The notes under the pieces were generated by a model. The model made no database searches, was not told the origin of the DNA, and saw only the letters and a program-made list of their open reading frames with translations. Source: Rubripirellula sp. (GTDB taxonomy: Bacteria; Planctomycetota; Planctomycetia; Pirellulales; Pirellulaceae). From it: a stretch of DNA of 64,000 bases. This document shows, in pieces, positions 2,884 to 10,424 of this stretch (position 1 is the stretch's first letter; every line of letters begins with the position of its first letter). Made by a program: the position numbers and the translations under genes. The DNA lies in assembly GCA_965216875.1 (NCBI GenBank), contig OZ244207.1, positions 6,112,001 through 6,176,000 of the forward strand, in the 5' to 3' direction.

Positions 2884-4155
2884 TCAATTCACGATGGGCA
2901 GCTGACTCTCGTTGTTGCTGTCAATTGCATCGGGATCGCGATAGCTTCCGGTGTTGAAGTGTTTTGAGTAGGTTCCGAAATCGTTGAAGGCGTACTTCTT
3001 CGCCCAACGATAGACGAGACTTCGTTCCGGGATTTCGTCGCCTGGTTGGTATTGGCTCCGTCGCGGCTCCACATGTTTGAGTTCTTCGATCACATGACTT
3101 CTCGCGGTCGTATCGCGGGCACCGTGTTTTTCGGCCAGTTCAACCAGAATGTCGGGTCTTTCCATGATGACGCAGCCGCGCGTGTTCTCGGCGGTGAGCT
3201 CACGGAACTCGCGAAGGAACTCGGAGTTGTTAAAGGTCTCCGCAAGCGGTCGATCGTCGTGGATCGAATCGGTCGCGAGTTGGATGACCGGGCAAGGCTC
3301 GATGTCGCCCCACGGTCCGACATGGTGAGTGAAGCCGGTAGCGGCAGGACAGAGTGCGTTGCCAGCGTCGTCGTGGTAGGCATCGATGACGATGATTGGC
3401 TTTGTTGCGCGTGTGTCGACAACGAATTGTCGAACGCGTCGCTGCTGTTCGCTGGTCAGCGCCAATTGCGGGTTGGGTTCGGGCCCAACGGGACGATAGA
3501 TGTGATACCAACAATACATCACGCCCATTTCGATCAAACGGTCGACCCATTTATTGGTGACAAGGTCGTCAATGTTGGTTTTGCAAACGCTGGTGCAGAC
3601 GCCGACGAGCAATTTGTTCTTGATTGCGTTCTCGATACCCTGCATCGTTTGGTTCAACACGCCGTCTCGACCACGACGGGTATCGCTGATGATTTCGGTA
3701 CCTTCGACACTGATGAGCGGAGTGACATTGCCAAGGCGACGAAGTTCCTTGGCGACTTCGTCGGTGATGAAGTGCCCGTTGGTGAAGACTTGAAAATAGA
3801 CGTCGCGATTGGCTTCGAAGATTTTCAGCAGATCGCGGTGCATGAAGGGTTCGCCACCGAGGATCCCAAAGAAGCTATTCCCCATCGCTTTGGCTTGGGC
3901 GATGGTTTTGTTCGCTGCTTCCAGTTCGATGCGGTGTTGTTTCGAACCAACGTCGACCCAACATCCCTGGCATCGCAGATTGCAGCTATTGATGACCGAA
4001 AGGTAGAGGAACGGCGGGAAGAACTCGCCCTTCTTGAGCCGTCGTTTGTGTTTGTGAACGCTCAGAAGGCCGCGAACGCCGAGCGTCCAGCCAGCTTTCA
4101 AGAGGAGGCGTTTATCGGTTTCGACTAAGAATCGGCGAGCCAGGCGGAGATACAT
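2884..4155 (-). CDS. radical SAM protein with SPASM/twitch-like C-terminus
   Basis: CNLRCQGC (CxxxCxxC), GGEP and FTNG motifs; C-terminal CPAA...GDIEPCP. Confidence 0.9.
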   Translation of the reverse strand: MYLRLARRFLVETDKRLLLKAGWTLGVRGLLSVHKHKRRLKKGEFFPPFLYLSVINSCNLRCQGCWVDVGSKQHRIELEAANKTIAQAKAMGNSFFGILGGEPFMHRDLLKIFEANRDVYFQVFTNGHFITDEVAKELRRLGNVTPLISVEGTEIISDTRRGRDGVLNQTMQGIENAIKNKLLVGVCTSVCKTNIDDLVTNKWVDRLIEMGVMYCWYHIYRPVGPEPNPQLALTSEQQRRVRQFVVDTRATKPIIVIDAYHDDAGNALCPAATGFTHHVGPWGDIEPCPVIQLATDSIHDDRPLAETFNNSEFLREFRELTAENTRGCVIMERPDILVELAEKHGARDTTARSHVIEELKHVEPRRSQYQPGDEIPERSLVYRWAKKYAFNDFGTYSKHFNTGSYRDPDAIDSNNESQLPIVN

Positions 4156-4229
4156 CGAGCTGAACTTTCTCTGAATTGTGAACCTTCACTATTATGTCAA
4201 CAAACGCCCCCCAAAACAGGCCCGCGCGA

Positions 4230-4601
4230 AGGGACAGGCATATGCCAGCGGGTCGTTTCCGGGGACATGTCTCCGGGGACAGGCATTTTGTAGGCCTCCT
4301 CACCAAATTGGATTCTCCTCGGGGGACAGGCACACGCTGGCGTTGCTGACCGCGGATCGCGCCTCGGGGACAGGCATCAGTTGGAGGCGTAGGGGACAGG
4401 CACTGGTCAACGGCTCGTCGGGGAGAGCAAATCGGAATTCGCCCCCGCGACGATCATCTGTTAGACACCCCACCCGCGCCCAAGACGGGGACAGGCAACT
4501 CGCTTATGCCTGTCCCCCGTCATTACAGCAGCAAGTCAATCGGGCCGTCCTCTTGGACAGACATCTCAGGCCATGACACCACGAAACTCTTGCCTGTCCC
4601 C
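4230..4601. repeat. GGGGACAGGCA motif cluster 1 (six forward, two reverse copies)
   Basis: Forward copies at 4230 (1 mismatch), 4275, 4322, 4366, 4392 and 4487; reverse TGCCTGTCCCC at 4507 and 4591; degenerate copies at about 4261 and 4420. Confidence 0.92.
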
Positions 4602-4696
4602 CGAATGCGCGACCGAGTCCACACGCACGTGAATGTTAAACGAGGCAAGATCAGACGCACGAATTCGACGGCTACCGGACTTTTCGCTCCTGGTGA

Positions 4697-4726
4697 TTGC
4701 TTTGCCTGCATAAACACTGGTAGCAT
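4697..4726 (+). promoter_or_regulatory. putative sigma70-type promoter for a small RNA
   Basis: TTGCTT (4697-4702), 18-nt spacer, TG-n-TAGCAT extended -10 (TG at 4718, hexamer 4721-4726); the structured region begins 7 nt downstream. Confidence 0.45.
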
Positions 4727-4732
4727 TCTTGC

Positions 4733-4875
4733 GGTCGTGGTGGTCGACGGTTTGATACAAACCGTTGATCACGGTAGGAAGCCGGATAGGAGGCACACAC
4801 GACCCTCGAGTGCGGACAACTCGATTTGGAGACAGCCTGGTGAGCATCTCGCTTCACCGGGCTGTCGTTTTTTTT
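4733..4875 (+). ncRNA. candidate ~140-nt small RNA (multi-hairpin, GGA-rich, own terminator)
   Basis: P1 pairs 4733-4739 with 4798-4804. A 15-bp hairpin with 2 GU pairs spans 4740-4772. Small hairpins at 4773-4783 and 4806-4824 have GGA in their loops. Terminator stem plus T8 follows. No credible + strand CDS here. Confidence 0.55.
4831..4875 (+). terminator. intrinsic terminator on + strand
   Basis: GACAGCCTGGTGA (4831-4843) pairs with TCACCGGGCTGTC (4854-4866) and is followed by G plus 8 T. No A-tract upstream, so it is not oriented for the minus-strand gene. Confidence 0.8.
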
Positions 4876-4926
4876 GCATCGTCCTGACTCTCGCGACTCT
4901 ACTCTGTTTGTCTCACCGAAGTGCTC

Positions 4927-5697
4927 TCAACCCGACACCGATGTCCAGAGAAGCTTGGCACCCGTCGCGACCATGACGACGATCAAGAAGGTAAACACAA
5001 ATCGATTTCCCTTCTTGATCACCAACTTGGCTCCGATGACCCCACCAACAACGTTGCCAGCCGCCATCGTCAAGCCAACGCGATAGTCAACGAGGCCGGA
5101 CATCGCATAAATGGCTGCGGCCGACAAAGTGACGATGCCACCAACAAGATTCTTGATTGCGTTGGAACGAACAAGGTCGCCACAGTGAATTCCCAATAGG
5201 TGCATCGCCAACAGGAGCAAGACGCCAAGTCCAGCCTGTATAAAACCAACGTAGATCCCGATAAACAAAAAGACGACAGAGGCCCATCTATTTGGCGTCT
5301 CCTCTGAACTCGTATGCCGCCGCACGATTTGGCTGGGATTCGCAATGAGCAGACATGCCATACACAAGAACAGGAGGCCGAACGCACCCTCAAACGCTTT
5401 GCCCGGAAGGTAGATCGCAAGCATCGCACCCAATGGAACACCAGCAAGCGTCGGAAGAAGCAGCCGCCGTGTGTTTTCTCGATCAAGAAGCCCTTGCCGT
5501 GAAAACGTTACCGTCGCAGAAACACTGGACAGTGCTACGGCAATTCGGTTGGTGCCATTGGCGAGTTTCGGATCGAGCCCAAACAACATCAAAGCGGGAA
5601 GCGTTAAGAAAGACCCGCCTCCTGCGATTGTGTTGACGATGCCAGCAACGAAACCTGCCACAACCAACACGAAATACCAACCCAGCTCCCCCAACAC
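4927..5697 (-). CDS. sulfite exporter TauE/SafE (TSUP) family membrane protein
   Basis: GFVAGIVNTIAGGGSFLTLPAL, ANGTN and GIYVGFIQAGLG motifs, about 8 TM segments; probable GTG start at 5697 after GAAAGG. Confidence 0.9.
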   Translation of the reverse strand: MLGELGWYFVLVVAGFVAGIVNTIAGGGSFLTLPALMLFGLDPKLANGTNRIAVALSSVSATVTFSRQGLLDRENTRRLLLPTLAGVPLGAMLAIYLPGKAFEGAFGLLFLCMACLLIANPSQIVRRHTSSEETPNRWASVVFLFIGIYVGFIQAGLGVLLLLAMHLLGIHCGDLVRSNAIKNLVGGIVTLSAAAIYAMSGLVDYRVGLTMAAGNVVGGVIGAKLVIKKGNRFVFTFLIVVMVATGAKLLWTSVSG

Positions 5698-5865
5698 AGA
5701 CCTTTCAAAACCGCAGGCTTGTCGAACACACACCACCGCCTATTGAGACATCAATCGCGGTGAGAAGTTCGGAGCAGATTACTCTCGGAACTGATTGGAC
5801 GATAGCCGGCCGAGACTAACGCCGAAAACGACAGAACGTAATGCTGATGGGGAAGATGGCTAATC

Positions 5866-6939
5866 TCATGCCACTGCTCGGAGCGGATTCCCATCAGCAC
5901 GCAGCCATTTCTGGCCGCGCCGCACAGCTTCTTTGGACAAGCTTTCCTTCGTGCCTGCAGCTCGTCGAAAAATCCTTCCGAAGCCGTTTATTAGGCGGCA
6001 CCAAGTTCGATCATCGATCCCAATTCGTTTAAGTATCGGCGCAAGGCACGATGGAATCACGCCATCGTACTTGGCATGAAGTTGTCGCCCCGTCCAATCC
6101 AAGAGCTGAATATATTGAGTTAACCCGATATACAAGAAACCACGTTCGCTCGCGCGCCTTGGAGACACAGTCTTGCTTGTGGTTCCGTTATGGTCTGCAG
6201 CCTCATTCAGTTGAATCGGACTCATCCAGCCGCTGTGTTTTCGTTCGACGTCCCTTTCCCAATCGTGGGTATCCCTCGGCACTGCCGCGTCGCTGACCAA
6301 GTCATCGATGCGATCCTTAGCACCTGTGAACTTGCTTGTTTCCGGTGTTTCTGCCAACGAAGCTCGGACGGGATTCAGATCAACATAAACAGCACAAGCG
6401 AGCAGACTACTTTCGTCTAACAAGGGCTGGGCATGATAGCGGCCTTCCCAGAAATGGCCTGTGACCTCGTCCTCGCTGTTGGCCAGGCGAGCAATATGCT
6501 CGCTGAAATACCGCATCCACCAACTCATGTCGCTCAACCGACTGCGAATCACAGCCGTGCGTTGCTCGTTGTTGGCAATCATGTCGGTTTCTGGCTGAGA
6601 AATCTCACCAGAAGAAGCGTCGTCACTGCGTTTCTTCGGGCCAAGTCTCAGCCATCGAACCGCCACTTCTTCATCAGACCAAGACTGCACGACGTCGGGA
6701 CGGCTTCTCAGAATCATATGGGTATGGTTGTGCATGACCGAATAGGTCAAACACTCAATCCCAAATATTGAAGCCAAGAACTCCAATCGCCGCTTGATCC
6801 ATTCACGGCGATGTTCGAAGCTCTTTCCGGACACGGCATCGTTGCCGCAAAGAAAGGCACGTCGAACACAACGTTGTGTGCAATGAACAATCTCAACCTG
6901 CGAGGGATCAATGATCTCTCGCCGCGCTTGCCGAGGCAT
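5866..6939 (-). mobile_element. stand-alone Y1/HUH transposase-like nuclease (IS200-like fold, long RAYT-like type), 357 aa
   Basis: HUH motif MHNHTHMILR, FWEGRY, catalytic-Tyr motif YVDLNPVRA and C-terminal YIQLLDWTGR. No tnpB partner and no terminal inverted repeats. Surrounded by short palindromic repeats. Confidence 0.88.
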
Positions 6940-6984
6940 ATCTGCCCTCCCCCGACGAATTGTTGACTCACCCGATCGGTCCCG

Positions 6985-7013
6985 ATTATTGCGAGAAAGT
7001 GAACACTTGTCAA
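6985..7013 (-). promoter_or_regulatory. sigma70-type promoter of the Y1 nuclease gene
   Basis: Minus strand TTGACA (7013-7008), 17 nt, AATAAT (6990-6985); GGAGG RBS ahead of ATG 6939. Confidence 0.6.
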
Positions 7014-7043
7014 CCTATTAGATTTGAGTAGTGAAGTAGCTTC

Positions 7044-7163
7044 GGGGACAGGCATTTGCTTGGTGCCTGTCCCGTATTTCCCTGTGTGCCTGTCCCCTGT
7101 GTCCCTTTTGGTATTGTGCCAATCCCCTGAACCTGGCCCGCGTAAAAAGACATACCTGTCCCC
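7044..7163. repeat. GGGGACAGGCA motif cluster 2
   Basis: Forward copy at 7044; reverse copies at 7064, 7087, 7117 (degenerate) and 7153 (1 mismatch). Confidence 0.9.
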
Positions 7164-7306
7164 ACCGTGCCAATCCAGATGCTCATCCGCAGCTAACGCT
7201 GCTCCCGTGTGAGTCTCTTCACTTCAAGCGATGAGCGTGAATGTTTCTGATAGAGTGTTTCCCGCGCTTTCGAATTTCAACTTTCCACAATCTTTGGCCT
7301 CGTCGA

Positions 7307-8554
7307 ATGATTCGCCGATTTCTAACTTGTCTCACGGCTCTCGTTTTCACGTCACTCCCTGGAGCTGCCGACGATGATTGGCGAGTTTGGCGCGGCCCCA
7401 ATGCCAACGGCGTCGCGAACAGCGATCAACGTCCTCCGACTCAATGGAGCAAAACCTCCAACATCGTGTGGAAATCGCCAGTCCCTGGTCGTGGACACTC
7501 TTCGCCAATAGTCGTTGGTAATCGAATCTTCTTGACAACAGCGGACGAGTCGAACCAAGTTCAATCTGTCCTTTGCTACGACCGCACGACTGGCCAGCAG
7601 GTGTGGAAAGTCGATGCCAACCGCGGTGGATTCAGTCCGAAAATCCACAACAAGAATACACATGCTAGTCCGACGATTGCGTCCGATGGCGAACGTGTGT
7701 TTGCTGTCTTCAATAACAATCAAGCAGCCCAACTCACCGCGTTGACTGTCGAGGGCGATCAACTTTGGCAGAAAAACGCGGGCGGATTCGTACCCCGTGC
7801 TTATCAGTTCGGCTACGCCCCCTCACCACTCCTCTTTGATGACACCGTGATCGTCGCATCCGAGTTTGAATCGGCTGGTTTCCTCGCAGCGTTCGACGTT
7901 GAATCAGGAAACGAGGTCTGGCGACGACGACGTCCTCCTACGATTAGCTATTCATCACCGATCGTCGGCGATGTCGCTGGCCGCCAGCAACTGCTCATCA
8001 GCGGATGCAAACAAGTCGCCGCCTTTGACCCAAGTACCGGCACACCACTCTGGTCCACCCCAGGGATTTGGACGGTCACATGTGCGACCGTCGTTTGGAA
8101 TGATGACATGGTGTTTGCAAGTGGAGGCTATCCAGACAAGGGCACGATGGCCGTTCGGGCAGATGGCTCAGGCGAAGTCGTTTGGCAAAACCGAGTGAAG
8201 TGCTACGAGCAATCCATGCTTGTTCACAACGGCTTTCTCTATGGGGTCGATGACGGCGGTGTCGCTTATTGCTGGCGCTGCAATGATGGCAAAGAAATGT
8301 GGAAACGGCGGCTTGGTGGAAACGTTAGCTCGTCACCCATCTTGGCTCGGGGCAATATCTATCTTGCAAATGAAGGTGGTACGACCTTCGTTTTCCGAGC
8401 CGATCCCGATCGTTTCGAACCGGTCGCCAAGAACCAACTCGGAACTGAAACTTTTGCAACGCCCGCTTTTTGTGGAAACCAGATTTTCACCCGCGTCGCA
8501 ACTCGAGACTCCGGTAAGCGACAAGAGTTCCTCGTCTGTATCGGAAACGAATAG
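7307..8554 (+). CDS. PQQ-binding-like beta-propeller protein (BamB-like, planctomycete-expanded family)
   Basis: Signal peptide, DWRVWRGP motif, and repeated SSPIV and G..VW blade motifs; probable ATG at 7307. Confidence 0.9.
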   Translation: MIRRFLTCLTALVFTSLPGAADDDWRVWRGPNANGVANSDQRPPTQWSKTSNIVWKSPVPGRGHSSPIVVGNRIFLTTADESNQVQSVLCYDRTTGQQVWKVDANRGGFSPKIHNKNTHASPTIASDGERVFAVFNNNQAAQLTALTVEGDQLWQKNAGGFVPRAYQFGYAPSPLLFDDTVIVASEFESAGFLAAFDVESGNEVWRRRRPPTISYSSPIVGDVAGRQQLLISGCKQVAAFDPSTGTPLWSTPGIWTVTCATVVWNDDMVFASGGYPDKGTMAVRADGSGEVVWQNRVKCYEQSMLVHNGFLYGVDDGGVAYCWRCNDGKEMWKRRLGGNVSSSPILARGNIYLANEGGTTFVFRADPDRFEPVAKNQLGTETFATPAFCGNQIFTRVATRDSGKRQEFLVCIGNE

Positions 8555-8594
8555 CCTCCCTTTCCAACACTCGCCGTTCGTTGCTCGCTCTGCA

Positions 8595-8843
8595 GGGGAC
8601 AGGCACAAAGCGGGGCACAAAACGGGCAAAACGGGGGACAGGCATGAAGTTGATGCCTGTCCCCGCTTTCAGATCGGCCGCGCTTCTGATGAAGCATCAC
8701 CTTGCTAGCATTCCGATGCGTGGATTGCGGGGACAGGCATTCAGATTGACGGGACAGGCATTGACGAAATGCCTGTCCCCCGTTCGCTGGGCTGTCCCCA
8801 CGTTGCCCTACGCGCGCCTGTCCCCCTTCGCGCGCCTGTCCCC
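8595..8843. repeat. GGGGACAGGCA motif cluster 3 (two nested units)
   Basis: Unit 1: forward 8595 and 8634, reverse 8654. Unit 2: forward 8729 and 8751 (10-nt core), reverse 8770, 8789, 8815 and 8833 (the last three slightly degenerate). Confidence 0.92.
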
Positions 8844-8984
8844 TGGTTGGCGGTACCCGATTTGGCGCGGGTTGTCGCTTAATCTTGGGGTTGCTTTAAG
8901 CCGATAGGAACCGAGTGTTGCCTCTGCTTCCACATTGCGCGTACGGCCTTCGTCAGACACCCGACTCTTTCACATGATCCTGCA

Positions 8985-10424
8985 ATGACGTGGAGCCGAT
9001 TCAGCTTTTGGGTGTTTGCTATCACATGTGGGCTCAACGCCTTCGCGCAGCCCCCATCTGACCCCTCCGGCTCACTCGATCGGCTTGAACACCTCGAGGC
9101 AACCGTTCAGCTGCTGCAGCTAGAGCTCGAGCGACTCCACGAAGATCGTTCTGTAACTCAGGTGCTCGGCCACGATCGCGTCGAAATCCCTCATCCTTGC
9201 GACGCACCCGCCTGCGACGGAGCCGATCCCACCCACTCAAGAACCCACTACGTCACCTACGACGATGGCTGGGTGCTGCGTCCGTTCGATCGTGTTACGA
9301 CACCGTTCGAATTGAAGTTCAACCTTCACAACCAGTTTCGTTACACCGGCTTTAATCGCTCCGTCCGAACATTCACCAACAGCGCTGGCACGACCACACC
9401 CATCCGCAGTCGAAACGACTTTGACGTCAACCGCGGCCGGCTTGTCTTTTCGGGATACGCGTTTGATCCGCGTTTCACCTTCTACACCAACATTGACTAC
9501 AACACCGTCGCCCAAAACCCCGTGCTTCTGCTGCTCTCTTGGATCTCGTTTCGCCACAGTGACGCGTTGACGATTAGTGCAGGGCTTGGCAAGGTTCCGG
9601 GCACCTGGGAATGGATCGAAACTTCGCGCCGAACACTCGGATCAGAACGAACGATGGCAACAACCTTCTTTCGTCCTTCAATCACCGCAGGGATCTGGGC
9701 CAACGGCGAACTCTTCGAAAACATCTACTACGAAGCTCTCGTTGGCGACGGATTCAATACCTTCACGCTTCGCGCCAGCGAACTCGATACCAACCTCGCG
9801 TATTCAGCCAGCGTGTGGGCGGAACCGCTTGGCGATTTTGGCGTCGGCTTTTCTGACCTGGAAGAACACGCGTGCTTGGCGATGCGAATTGGCCATGGCT
9901 TCACCTTCGCCAGCAACGATAGCGAACCGACGGGCGAACCCGGCCCGGAACAGACCGTCATTCGACTCTCAGATGGAACACGGCTCGTCGAACCAGGCGC
10001 TCTCGCCCCCGGGGTCACCGTCAATCAGTTCGACATCTCACTCTACGCCGTCCACCTCGGCCTCAAATATCGTGGCGCAAGTTTCGCAACCGAGTACTTC
10101 TTTCGATGGCTCACATCACTCGAAGGAAACGGGCCTCTTCCGGTCAACTCGCTGTTTGATCACGGCTTCTATGTCCAGGGAGGCCTGTTTGTCATCCCGA
10201 AGCGGCTCGAACTTTACTCGATTGGATCCCACGTTACAGGTGACTACGGTTCAGGCCACGAGATCGCCGCAGGCTTCAACTACTACGTTGGCGGCCGACG
10301 AGGATCGCGCATTACCTTCGATGTGTCGCACATCAACGATTCACCTGCCGACCAGAGTCGCACCGGCTTTGTCGCTGGCGCAAGCGGCACACTTTTTCGC
10401 GCTCAGATGTGGACGTTCTTTTAG
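8985..10424 (+). CDS. outer-membrane porin, OprO/OprP-like
   Basis: Signal peptide, N-terminal coiled coil, QFRYT and FDVNRGRLVFSG motifs, alternating beta-strands, C-terminal Phe. Confidence 0.75.
   Translation: MTWSRFSFWVFAITCGLNAFAQPPSDPSGSLDRLEHLEATVQLLQLELERLHEDRSVTQVLGHDRVEIPHPCDAPACDGADPTHSRTHYVTYDDGWVLRPFDRVTTPFELKFNLHNQFRYTGFNRSVRTFTNSAGTTTPIRSRNDFDVNRGRLVFSGYAFDPRFTFYTNIDYNTVAQNPVLLLLSWISFRHSDALTISAGLGKVPGTWEWIETSRRTLGSERTMATTFFRPSITAGIWANGELFENIYYEALVGDGFNTFTLRASELDTNLAYSASVWAEPLGDFGVGFSDLEEHACLAMRIGHGFTFASNDSEPTGEPGPEQTVIRLSDGTRLVEPGALAPGVTVNQFDISLYAVHLGLKYRGASFATEYFFRWLTSLEGNGPLPVNSLFDHGFYVQGGLFVIPKRLELYSIGSHVTGDYGSGHEIAAGFNYYVGGRRGSRITFDVSHINDSPADQSRTGFVAGASGTLFRAQMWTFF

Follow-up and report, generated by a model that had tools for sequence, protein, structure and literature searches.

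Facing pairs of probable end repeats at a nine-nucleotide distance beside a TIRYT-like transposase gene of Rubripirellula

What are the short palindromes that lie between genes in one stretch of the chromosome of Rubripirellula sp. (assembly GCA_965216875.1, contig OZ244207.1), and why are their arms held at one distance? The stretch, called here the window, is the 64,000 nucleotides at positions 6,112,001-6,176,000 of a single 8.26-Mb contig (56% G+C). Each palindrome, or core, consists of the motif GGGACAGGCA facing its inverted copy TGCCTGTCCC across nine nucleotides whose sequence changes from site to site; further single copies of the motif (half-sites) accompany the cores. A first-pass annotation of the window took the constant spacing as a sign of selection on geometry, either in a hairpin with a measured loop recognised by an HUH enzyme or in a recombination site with an exchangeable centre. 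The motif appears to be the terminal inverted repeat (TIR) of a neighbouring gene coding for a HUH/Y1 transposase-like protein of the type named TIRYT. The reading that we favour, at a probability of about 60%, is that the cores are minimal pairs of element ends, the half-sites extra ends, and the nine nucleotides a consequence of the geometry of a dimer.

A search of the window that allowed up to two mismatches found GGGACAGGCA-N9-TGCCTGTCCC at four places, all without mismatch: 4488-4516 (core 1), 7045-7073 (core 2), 8635-8663 (core 3) and 8751-8779 (core 4), the first-pass coordinates having taken in one flanking base. None is expected, and none of 100 dinucleotide-preserving shuffles gave a match. 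The spacers are, in the same order, ACTCGCTTA, TTTGCTTGG, TGAAGTTGA and TTGACGAAA; any two of them agree at no more than four of nine positions in either orientation, which bears out the earlier claim of four sites with unrelated 9-mers. The 10-mer GGGACAGGCA itself has 22 matches at up to one mismatch in the window (3.4 expected), 20 of them in three intergenic clusters that extend from 4231 to 8842. The four cores are all the facing (+/-) transitions found between adjacent motif copies of the window.

Clusters 1 and 2 enclose a TauE/SafE gene and a gene for a 357-aa protein; clusters 2 and 3 enclose a PQQ-propeller gene. The 357-aa protein, encoded at 5866-6939 on the minus strand, is identified by motifs and a structural model as HUH/Y1 tyrosine transposase-like, of TIRYT/RAYT-like type. 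Read in the orientation of this gene, the upstream copies of the 10-mer have the form GGGACAGGCA and the downstream copies its complement; the full-length form of the motif at the gene is GGGGACAGGCA. The host genome holds four paralogous genes including that of the window, with 40-43% identity, each flanked by its own motif variant. The other three, at genome positions 8121029-8121991(-), 8046914-8047879(+) and 5871696-5872658(+), are flanked by the sister motif GGGGACAGAGCA, in direct orientation upstream and inverted downstream; this motif has 48 copies in the genome. For a third motif variant, GGGGACAGACCA, which is present in 17 copies, there is no obvious cognate gene. In another Pirellulaceae genome (G401), GGGACAGGCA brackets each of four homologous genes in the order + + + gene - - -.

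In a third genome, a Pirellulaceae metagenome-assembled genome with complete chromosomes, the homologue belongs to a multicopy unit of ~1350 bp with at least ten copies at 95-98% identity (L011-L019, L021). Homology between the copies begins exactly at (A/C)GGGACACCCAAT, 85 nt before the ATG, and ceases ~9 nt after ATTGGGTGTCCC. Because copy homology starts and stops at the motif, the motif is the terminal inverted repeat of this mobile unit, its outermost bases being GGG and CCC. Several copies of this unit are nested or truncated. The heptamer ACCTAAC stands just outside the end motif in five of seven aligned left flanks; it might be a favoured target, or the end itself might extend outward to include it.

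Among 77 homologous loci, 64 have enough flanking sequence for comparison and 13 too little. By reading of the flank alignments, an exact inverted motif pair of at least 9 nt is present in 31 of the 64, mostly with the upstream arm ~82-96 nt ahead of the ATG and its downstream partner ~170-310 nt beyond the stop codon. Arm 7064-7073 of core 2 aligns to the left-end motif of the closest relatives, and arm 7045-7054 is an extra inverted copy. On this sequence evidence the GGGACAGGCA repeats are assigned to the HUH/Y1 gene 5866-6939(-) as its terminal-inverted-repeat motif. Two genomes of the same genus (G016 and G137) have homologues of the PQQ and TauE genes (75% and 62% identity) in other contexts, where neither the transposase gene nor repeat clusters are found; an insertion boundary could not be read from the empty-site comparison with these two.

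The predicted transposase carries NHTH at residue 71, WE (WEGR) at 164 and YVDLNP at 185, and thus both signatures of the TnpA_Y1 superfamily, HuH (N71-H72-T73-H74) and Y---NP (Y185-V-D-L-N-P190). Residues N71, H72, H74, Y185, D187, L188, N189 and P190 and the WE motif are invariant in 26 homologues with identities down to 36%. More than 7000 homologues were found at E <= 0.001 among 8000 candidates scored, some of which carry in their source records the name 'REP element-mobilizing transposase RayT' or 'Transposase IS200-like domain'. The profile matches have significant E-values yet fall short of the curated cutoffs, both for NCBIfam REP_Tyr_transpos (E 2e-9, 37.3 bits, cutoff 80) and for Pfam Y1_Tnp (E 7e-4, 20.1 bits, cutoff 23), and a sequence search of the PDB gave no match at E <= 10. 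The AlphaFold model of the whole protein (pLDDT 81.5) has as its best Foldseek match 4er8_A, the structure of E. coli RAYT in complex with a REP hairpin, with probability 1.0 and an E-value of only 3e-3. The top eleven matches listed are RAYT 4er8, ISDra2 and IS200-type transposases (probability 0.98-1.00), followed by IS608 (0.85-0.97).

Proteins of subclass 2.3 of the superfamily are described (Quentin, Siguier, Chandler, Fichant 2018, BMC Genomics 19:475, PMC6006769) as having NHYH, WE and YVDLNP motifs, a median HuH-Y distance of 110, some 55 aa inserted between beta3 and alphaC, and a C-terminal tail specific to the subclass; their median length is 325 aa. The window protein shares the WE and YVDLNP motifs, an HuH-to-Y distance of 113 aa within its 357 aa, a large beta3-alphaC insertion (in the model, extra helices 81-135 between strand 72-79 and helix 138-157) and a C-terminal tail, conserved over residues 262-357. 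As in subclass 2.3, there is more than one diverged copy per genome, and relatives are found in Alteromonadales, Vibrionales and sulfur-oxidising symbionts. The protein differs in having NHTH instead of NHYH, whereas gammaproteobacterial homologues in the same alignment carry NHYH. It can be regarded as subclass 2.3-like, with exact WE and YVDLNP motifs and one substitution in the HuH signature.

RAYT-like genes flanked by TIRs instead of REP hairpins have been called TIRYTs and the units that they form TIRtrons (Di Nocera 2013, BMC Genomics 14:522, PMC3733652). According to passages of that paper, many TIRs share GGGGWSAS, a consensus given also in Quentin et al. 2018, their families occur as singles, dimers and clusters, and R. 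baltica is among the organisms rich in TIRYT genes and repeats. The locus agrees with what these passages describe in its RAYT-like Y1 gene flanked by inverted repeats, in the motif GGGGACAG, which fits GGGGWSAS, in the moderate abundance of the repeats as singles, dimers and groups, and in the presence of several gene/repeat pairs per genome. Among the 64 homologous loci none has a strict fit to GGGGWSAS, and some relatives have only GGGAC or GGAC. Three further differences concern the arrangement, the protein and the repeats. Unlike in a plain TIRtron, a TauE/SafE-family exporter gene (4927-5736, minus strand; Pfam TauE, E 3e-47) lies between the transposase gene and the downstream array, in the place where relatives have their right-end repeat; paralogues and relatives show the plain arrangement. 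This gene may be a passenger inside a repeat-bounded unit or a mere neighbour, or the right end of the unit may have been lost. The 26 TIRYTs of the 2013 paper are placed by the relevant part of the 2018 study in subclasses 2.1, 2.2 and 2.5, unlike the window protein with its 2.3 signature. The same source, in the passages on subclasses 2.1 and 2.3, has no REP-like sequences for either, whereas motif-bearing inverted repeats are present here at 31 of 64 homologous loci. The main-text passages of PMC3733652 make no mention of a sharp 9-nt class of head-to-head dimers or of turnover of tandem units between strains. In the literature searched, the name TIRYT was found only in these two papers, whose figures and supplementary files may list Planctomycete TIRs.

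Is the distance of nine nucleotides a property of the motif or of this locus? The exact 10-mer occurs in the 8.26-Mb genome in 41+41 copies, against ~12 expected per strand, and the 11-mer GGGGACAG in 65 copies against 6.7. The 82 exact copies of the 10-mer are distributed over ~27 places as singles, dimers and groups, with clusters of 5-17. Exact facing pairs up to 60 nt apart have a spacing of 9 nt in four cases, all in the window, of 13 nt in one and of 40 nt in one. One mismatch adds three pairs at 9 nt (5,514,872; 6,042,387; 6,042,527), two at 11 nt and one at 15 nt. With a looser motif, the spacer is 9 nt in 7 of 23 nearest facing pairs and 22 nt in two, while the back-to-back pairs (n=14) are without a preferred distance. 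The seven 9-nt pairs have spacers that share at most six of nine positions. The probability of finding at least seven facing pairs at one value is 5e-6 for uniform spacing and 0.003 when spacings are drawn from the direct pairs. The 9-nt spike is real in the host genome, specific to its lineage and not strict. What had been called an invariant spacing is so inside the window, but elsewhere in the genome facing pairs at 11, 13, 15 and 22 nt are found. The two pairs at 22 nt (genome positions 6435799 and 6437114) join two motif variants (GGGGACAGACC ... TGCCTGTCCCC), and there is a third, similar copy in which one arm is degenerate. Two of the spacers are clearly related, so that these mixed pairs are copies of a longer repeat unit.

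In 400 other genomes of the family, an exact pair within 30 nt is found in four only, with spacers of 24, 11, 27 and 13 nt and none of 9 nt. The 10-mer is not enriched in the two genomes of the same genus, G016 and G137, which have 13 and 14 copies where the control has 9 and 7. Sixteen genomes with homologous genes, each searched with its own motif, have no 9-nt pair, and 12 of them have no facing pair up to 30 nt. In the remaining ones facing pairs are at 24, 26 and 20 nt, and one genome has a set at 29, 29 and 30 nt, the whole set lying beside its homologue; measured between the longer arms of that lineage, the set has distances of 15, 15 and 16 nt. At L032:4162-5190 (contig C507 of G416), the homologous gene has downstream of it four long palindromes, each reading AAAGGGGTCAGGWCTCTTT-N15/16-complement. 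L032 represents a second lineage with its own near-fixed arm distance and varied loops. The 9.5-Mb genome with the multicopy element, presumably active, has no core, and the sister motif families of the host genome (48 and 17 copies) form no short facing pair. The spike at 9 nt that had been predicted within and across genomes is therefore present in the host genome and absent from the other genomes searched; the counts from other genomes go part of the way towards the broad spacer distribution that the first-pass annotation had named as contrary evidence.

The half-sites surround the cores in all three clusters. Cluster 1 has five direct copies of GGGACAGGCA at 4231-4402 on the plus strand (starts 4231, 4276, 4323, 4367 and 4393), whose neighbouring sequences are alike beyond the 10-mer, and a single inverted copy to the right of core 1 (4591-4600, minus strand). 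Core 2 is followed by two inverted copies at 7087-7162 on the minus strand, one exact (7087-7096) and one with a mismatch (7153-7162); the 21-nt units 7063-7083 and 7086-7106 are 86% alike. In cluster 3 a direct copy (8596-8605, plus strand) stands 29 nt before core 3. Two tandem 21-nt units at 8723-8764 on the plus strand (starts 8723 and 8744, 89% alike) each hold one motif copy, at 8730 and 8751. Degenerate inverted copies extend over 8789-8842 on the minus strand, at 8789 (two mismatches), 8815 and 8833 (one each), the last two as tandem 18-nt units (8806/8824) that are 94% alike.

A related strain, whose contigs from metagenome run X5 cover the whole stretch at ~99% identity, differs at these units; two other runs, X6 and X7, reach the stretch in short pieces only. 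The X5 strain lacks 21 nt at 8607, which by arithmetic on the window sequence would leave ~8 nt instead of 29 between the copy at 8596 and core 3. A further 21 nt are absent at 8730, corresponding to one motif-bearing unit, so that one unit is found there against two in the window, and 18 nt are added behind 8810 as a third CGCCTGTCCC unit. Core 1 is the same in both strains, no difference being listed between 4472 and 4525. Changes of -21, -21 and +18 nt at unit boundaries imply that the arrays gain and lose whole tandem units within a short time. The clusters read ++++----, with nine facing against three back-to-back transitions, the pattern expected when one arm or the other of a facing pair of ends is duplicated and the pair so grows outward. 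The half-sites are end copies amplified in tandem, not scars. The proposal that the core is the functional site and the half-sites remnants of its reaction also finds no support in the multicopy relative, where a single motif per end forms the boundary without any core, or in the GGGGACAGAGCA family, which has no short facing pairs.

We accordingly take the single copy of the motif as the probable basic unit, the end of an element. Each core would be a left-end and a right-end copy that face each other as in the full element but stand just 9 nt apart. Such a minimal pair of ends, without a gene, would be the TIR counterpart of the head-to-head REP dimer or REPIN. The half-sites would be extra end copies, multiplied and lost locally as 18-21-nt tandem units. 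The 9-nt class most likely reflects the geometry of a dimeric enzyme that holds two ends: nine nucleotides would be the distance at which the two protomers of the transposase hold them, and only pairs of this geometry would have been made or kept in the host lineage. Such a pair could be read as a hairpin of 10-14 bp on single-stranded DNA (ssDNA) or as a palindrome on duplex DNA.

The local concentration of the repeats bears on another history. Within 6.04-6.56 Mb, around the cognate gene (~0.5 Mb, 6% of the genome), lie 55 of the 82 exact copies of the 10-mer, a concentration that suggests local spread. The spacing might then have no selected function, the 9-nt pairs being locally duplicated descendants of a single ancestral pair, or of a few, whose spacers later diverged, or arising as a by-product of an enzyme or of replication slippage that makes end copies. 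The four exact cores lie within 2.4 kb of the gene, gain and loss of tandem units are seen directly between strains, cores 3 and 4, flanks included, show 85% complementarity over 34 nt, and two of the 1-mismatch pairs stand 140 nt apart with spacers that share five of nine positions. Yet the spacers resemble one another no more than chance would give, and of 20 arm bases all 20 are preserved, so that a history of duplication needs strong selection on the arms anyway. Tandem duplication is moreover unable to create an inverted copy, and no 9-mer is duplicated in the manner of a target-site duplication. We consider an origin without function quite improbable.

Folding addresses the hairpin form of the first-pass proposal. 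As ssDNA, each of the four cores is predicted to form a stable hairpin (-11.7 to -15.8 kcal/mol, z -4.2 to -5.8), and none of 200 shuffles is as stable. Core 1 folds at -15.8 kcal/mol (z -5.8) with a loop of 9 nt, core 2 at -11.7 kcal/mol (z -4.2) with a loop of 9, core 3 at -14.4 kcal/mol with a loop of 7, and core 4 with a stem of 12 and a loop of 5. A core could accordingly be a REP-like hairpin with a measured loop, the true ssDNA substrate of the HUH enzyme, of which single copies are decayed remnants. The closest solved structure, a RAYT bound to a REP hairpin, fits this, and the idea of REP singlets as decayed REPINs is already in the literature (Bertels and Rainey 2011, PMC3116915; also a passage of PMC3733652). 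Further likenesses to the REP/REPIN-RAYT system are a Y1 gene in single copy with a short repeat of its own on its flanks, hairpin-capable inverted doublets beside singlets, and the same protein fold (4ER8). The predicted loops are nevertheless unequal since the spacers pair internally to differing extents, and the constant feature is therefore the distance between the arms, not the loop. In five pairs with variant arms, three at 9 nt and two at 11 nt, no compensating change is found in the partner arm. The left ends of eight relatives give no significant hairpin (z -1.9 to +0.8); a degenerate inverted copy ~9 nt inside the left end, hinted at by alignment of L001-L005 as a conserved subterminal hairpin, was not upheld by folding. 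The lack of cores in the multicopy relative and in the sister families points the same way. Together, the left ends without hairpins, the uncompensated arms and the sister families without pairs indicate that a hairpin is not a requirement of the family and that the arms act as independent units at a fixed distance. Of the hairpin proposal there remains the link of the repeats to a neighbouring HUH gene; the measured loop is not supported.

The repeats differ also from REP sequences and from the ends of IS200/IS605. Unlike REPs, which are imperfect palindromes tagged at the 5' side by GTAG or GTGG, the 10-11-mer is not self-complementary, and no GTAG is seen beside the copies inspected, where the preceding bases vary. 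Unlike REPINs, there are only 82 copies rather than hundreds, with seven 9-nt pairs, and as the doublet spacers are unrelated (at most 6/9), the doublets are not copies of one mobile REPIN. The IS200/IS605 elements IS608 and ISDra2 share the HUH/Y1 catalytic core, and the gene of one relative behaves as a multicopy insertion sequence of ~1350 bp. The ends of IS200/IS605, however, carry subterminal hairpins and lack terminal inverted repeats, whereas here inverted repeats of 10-12 nt stand without significant hairpins. We hold a hairpin as the true substrate to be unlikely.

The uncompensated arm variants, with fixed length and free sequence between them, are also what independent half-sites of a duplex operator predict. 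In such a case the core would be bound by a dimeric protein, either through the C-terminal domain of the transposase or by a host regulator; spacing would be critical and spacer sequence free, and core 2 would autoregulate the transposase promoter. A sigma-70-like promoter, TTGACA-17-AATAAT, is indeed predicted by consensus match (11/12 positions) at 6985-7013 on the minus strand, between core 2 and the transposase ATG, and core 2 ends 32 nt upstream of its -35 hexamer. Arms are 19-20 bp apart from centre to centre, about two helical turns, and the direct copies, which cluster at gaps of 8-11 nt as well, would suit the same kind of binding. The 96 C-terminal residues of the transposase, modelled alone (pLDDT 74), give with VIA-align many helix-turn-helix regulators among the top matches, all weak (best Z 4.0 for ToxT, 3.3 for NanR and 3.2 for CdpR). 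Values of Z <= 4 are nevertheless in the noise range for small helical domains, and Foldseek with this model gave nothing below E 1. Cores 1, 3 and 4 lie away from the transposase promoter. The C-terminal domain of subclass 2.3 is specific to it, and its role is given as unknown in the passage of PMC6006769 that concerns it. An operator function seems to us no likelier than the hairpin.

Other kinds of site were considered. A site of the lox, dif or attC kind, the second form of the first-pass proposal, finds no partner nearby: the five long neighbouring proteins that were scanned are the HUH protein, TauE, the PQQ-propeller protein, a radical SAM protein and one without a family, with no tyrosine recombinase or integrase among these five. 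Intrinsic terminators were rejected, none of the five terminator-like sites in 4100-9000 being a core and their number equalling the expectation from shuffles. A strong terminator-like hairpin (14 pairs) followed by T8 does lie at 4831-4866 on the plus strand, in the interval that separates cluster 1 from the TauE gene, but it has no relation to the repeat family. Rfam covariance models gave no match at E <= 1 over 3900-9200. A rolling-circle Rep origin with a conserved nonanucleotide loop does not agree with the unrelated 9-mers. Target-site duplication was likewise discarded, none of the four 9-mers recurring within 12 kb except for one chance reverse match at 2461, with scattered 7-mer matches. 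Beyond cluster 3, at 8985-10424 on the plus strand, an open reading frame of 479 aa has no Pfam family at E <= 0.001; its N-terminus looks to us like a possible signal peptide.

Paired transposase ends thus remain the reading that we favour for the cores, and several points weigh against it. Geometry explains neither the value of nine nor the coexisting pairs at 11, 13, 15 and 22 nt. The downstream end of the unit of the window gene is off its usual place, with the TauE gene intervening. None of the cores with exact arms is more than 2.4 kb from the one gene, and there may be diverged local duplicates among them, so that the seven 9-nt pairs are not seven independent events. Most genomes with related genes have no short facing pairs, from which it follows that the pair is not needed for mobility of the family. 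In the passages of PMC3733652 and PMC6006769 that deal with them, TIRYT binding and cleavage assays are described only as future work.

For annotation, these intergenic palindromes are explained as transposase end repeats, neither terminators nor recombination sites. The repeat family itself is of a published but little-studied kind, although TIRYT-type Y1 enzymes are widespread, with more than 7000 homologues of the window protein, and the 9-nt gap is a peculiarity of the host genome, not a rule of the family. What the locus adds is that a subclass 2.3 gene is tied to an end motif of GGGGWSAS type, a modest addition to a published kind, and that in a relative the motif exactly bounds a mobile unit. 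No DNA target is known to us for subclass 2.3, which the literature describes as without REP-like partners. We put forward, as a possibility with odds well short of even, that the N9 palindrome is the preferred natural substrate of the subclass 2.3 Y1 HUH enzyme, as a mimic of synapsed ends. If so, the 9-nt class, and that of 15-16 nt in the other lineage, would directly show how far apart the dimer holds its two active sites or DNA-binding domains, and the arrays would be a record of local end duplication promoted by the enzyme. The locus offers a natural series made up of ends that stand alone, ends paired at 9, 11, 13 and 22 nt, and tandem arrays that vary with the strain; this series would then be a ready-made set of substrates for the first biochemistry of a TIRYT-type enzyme.

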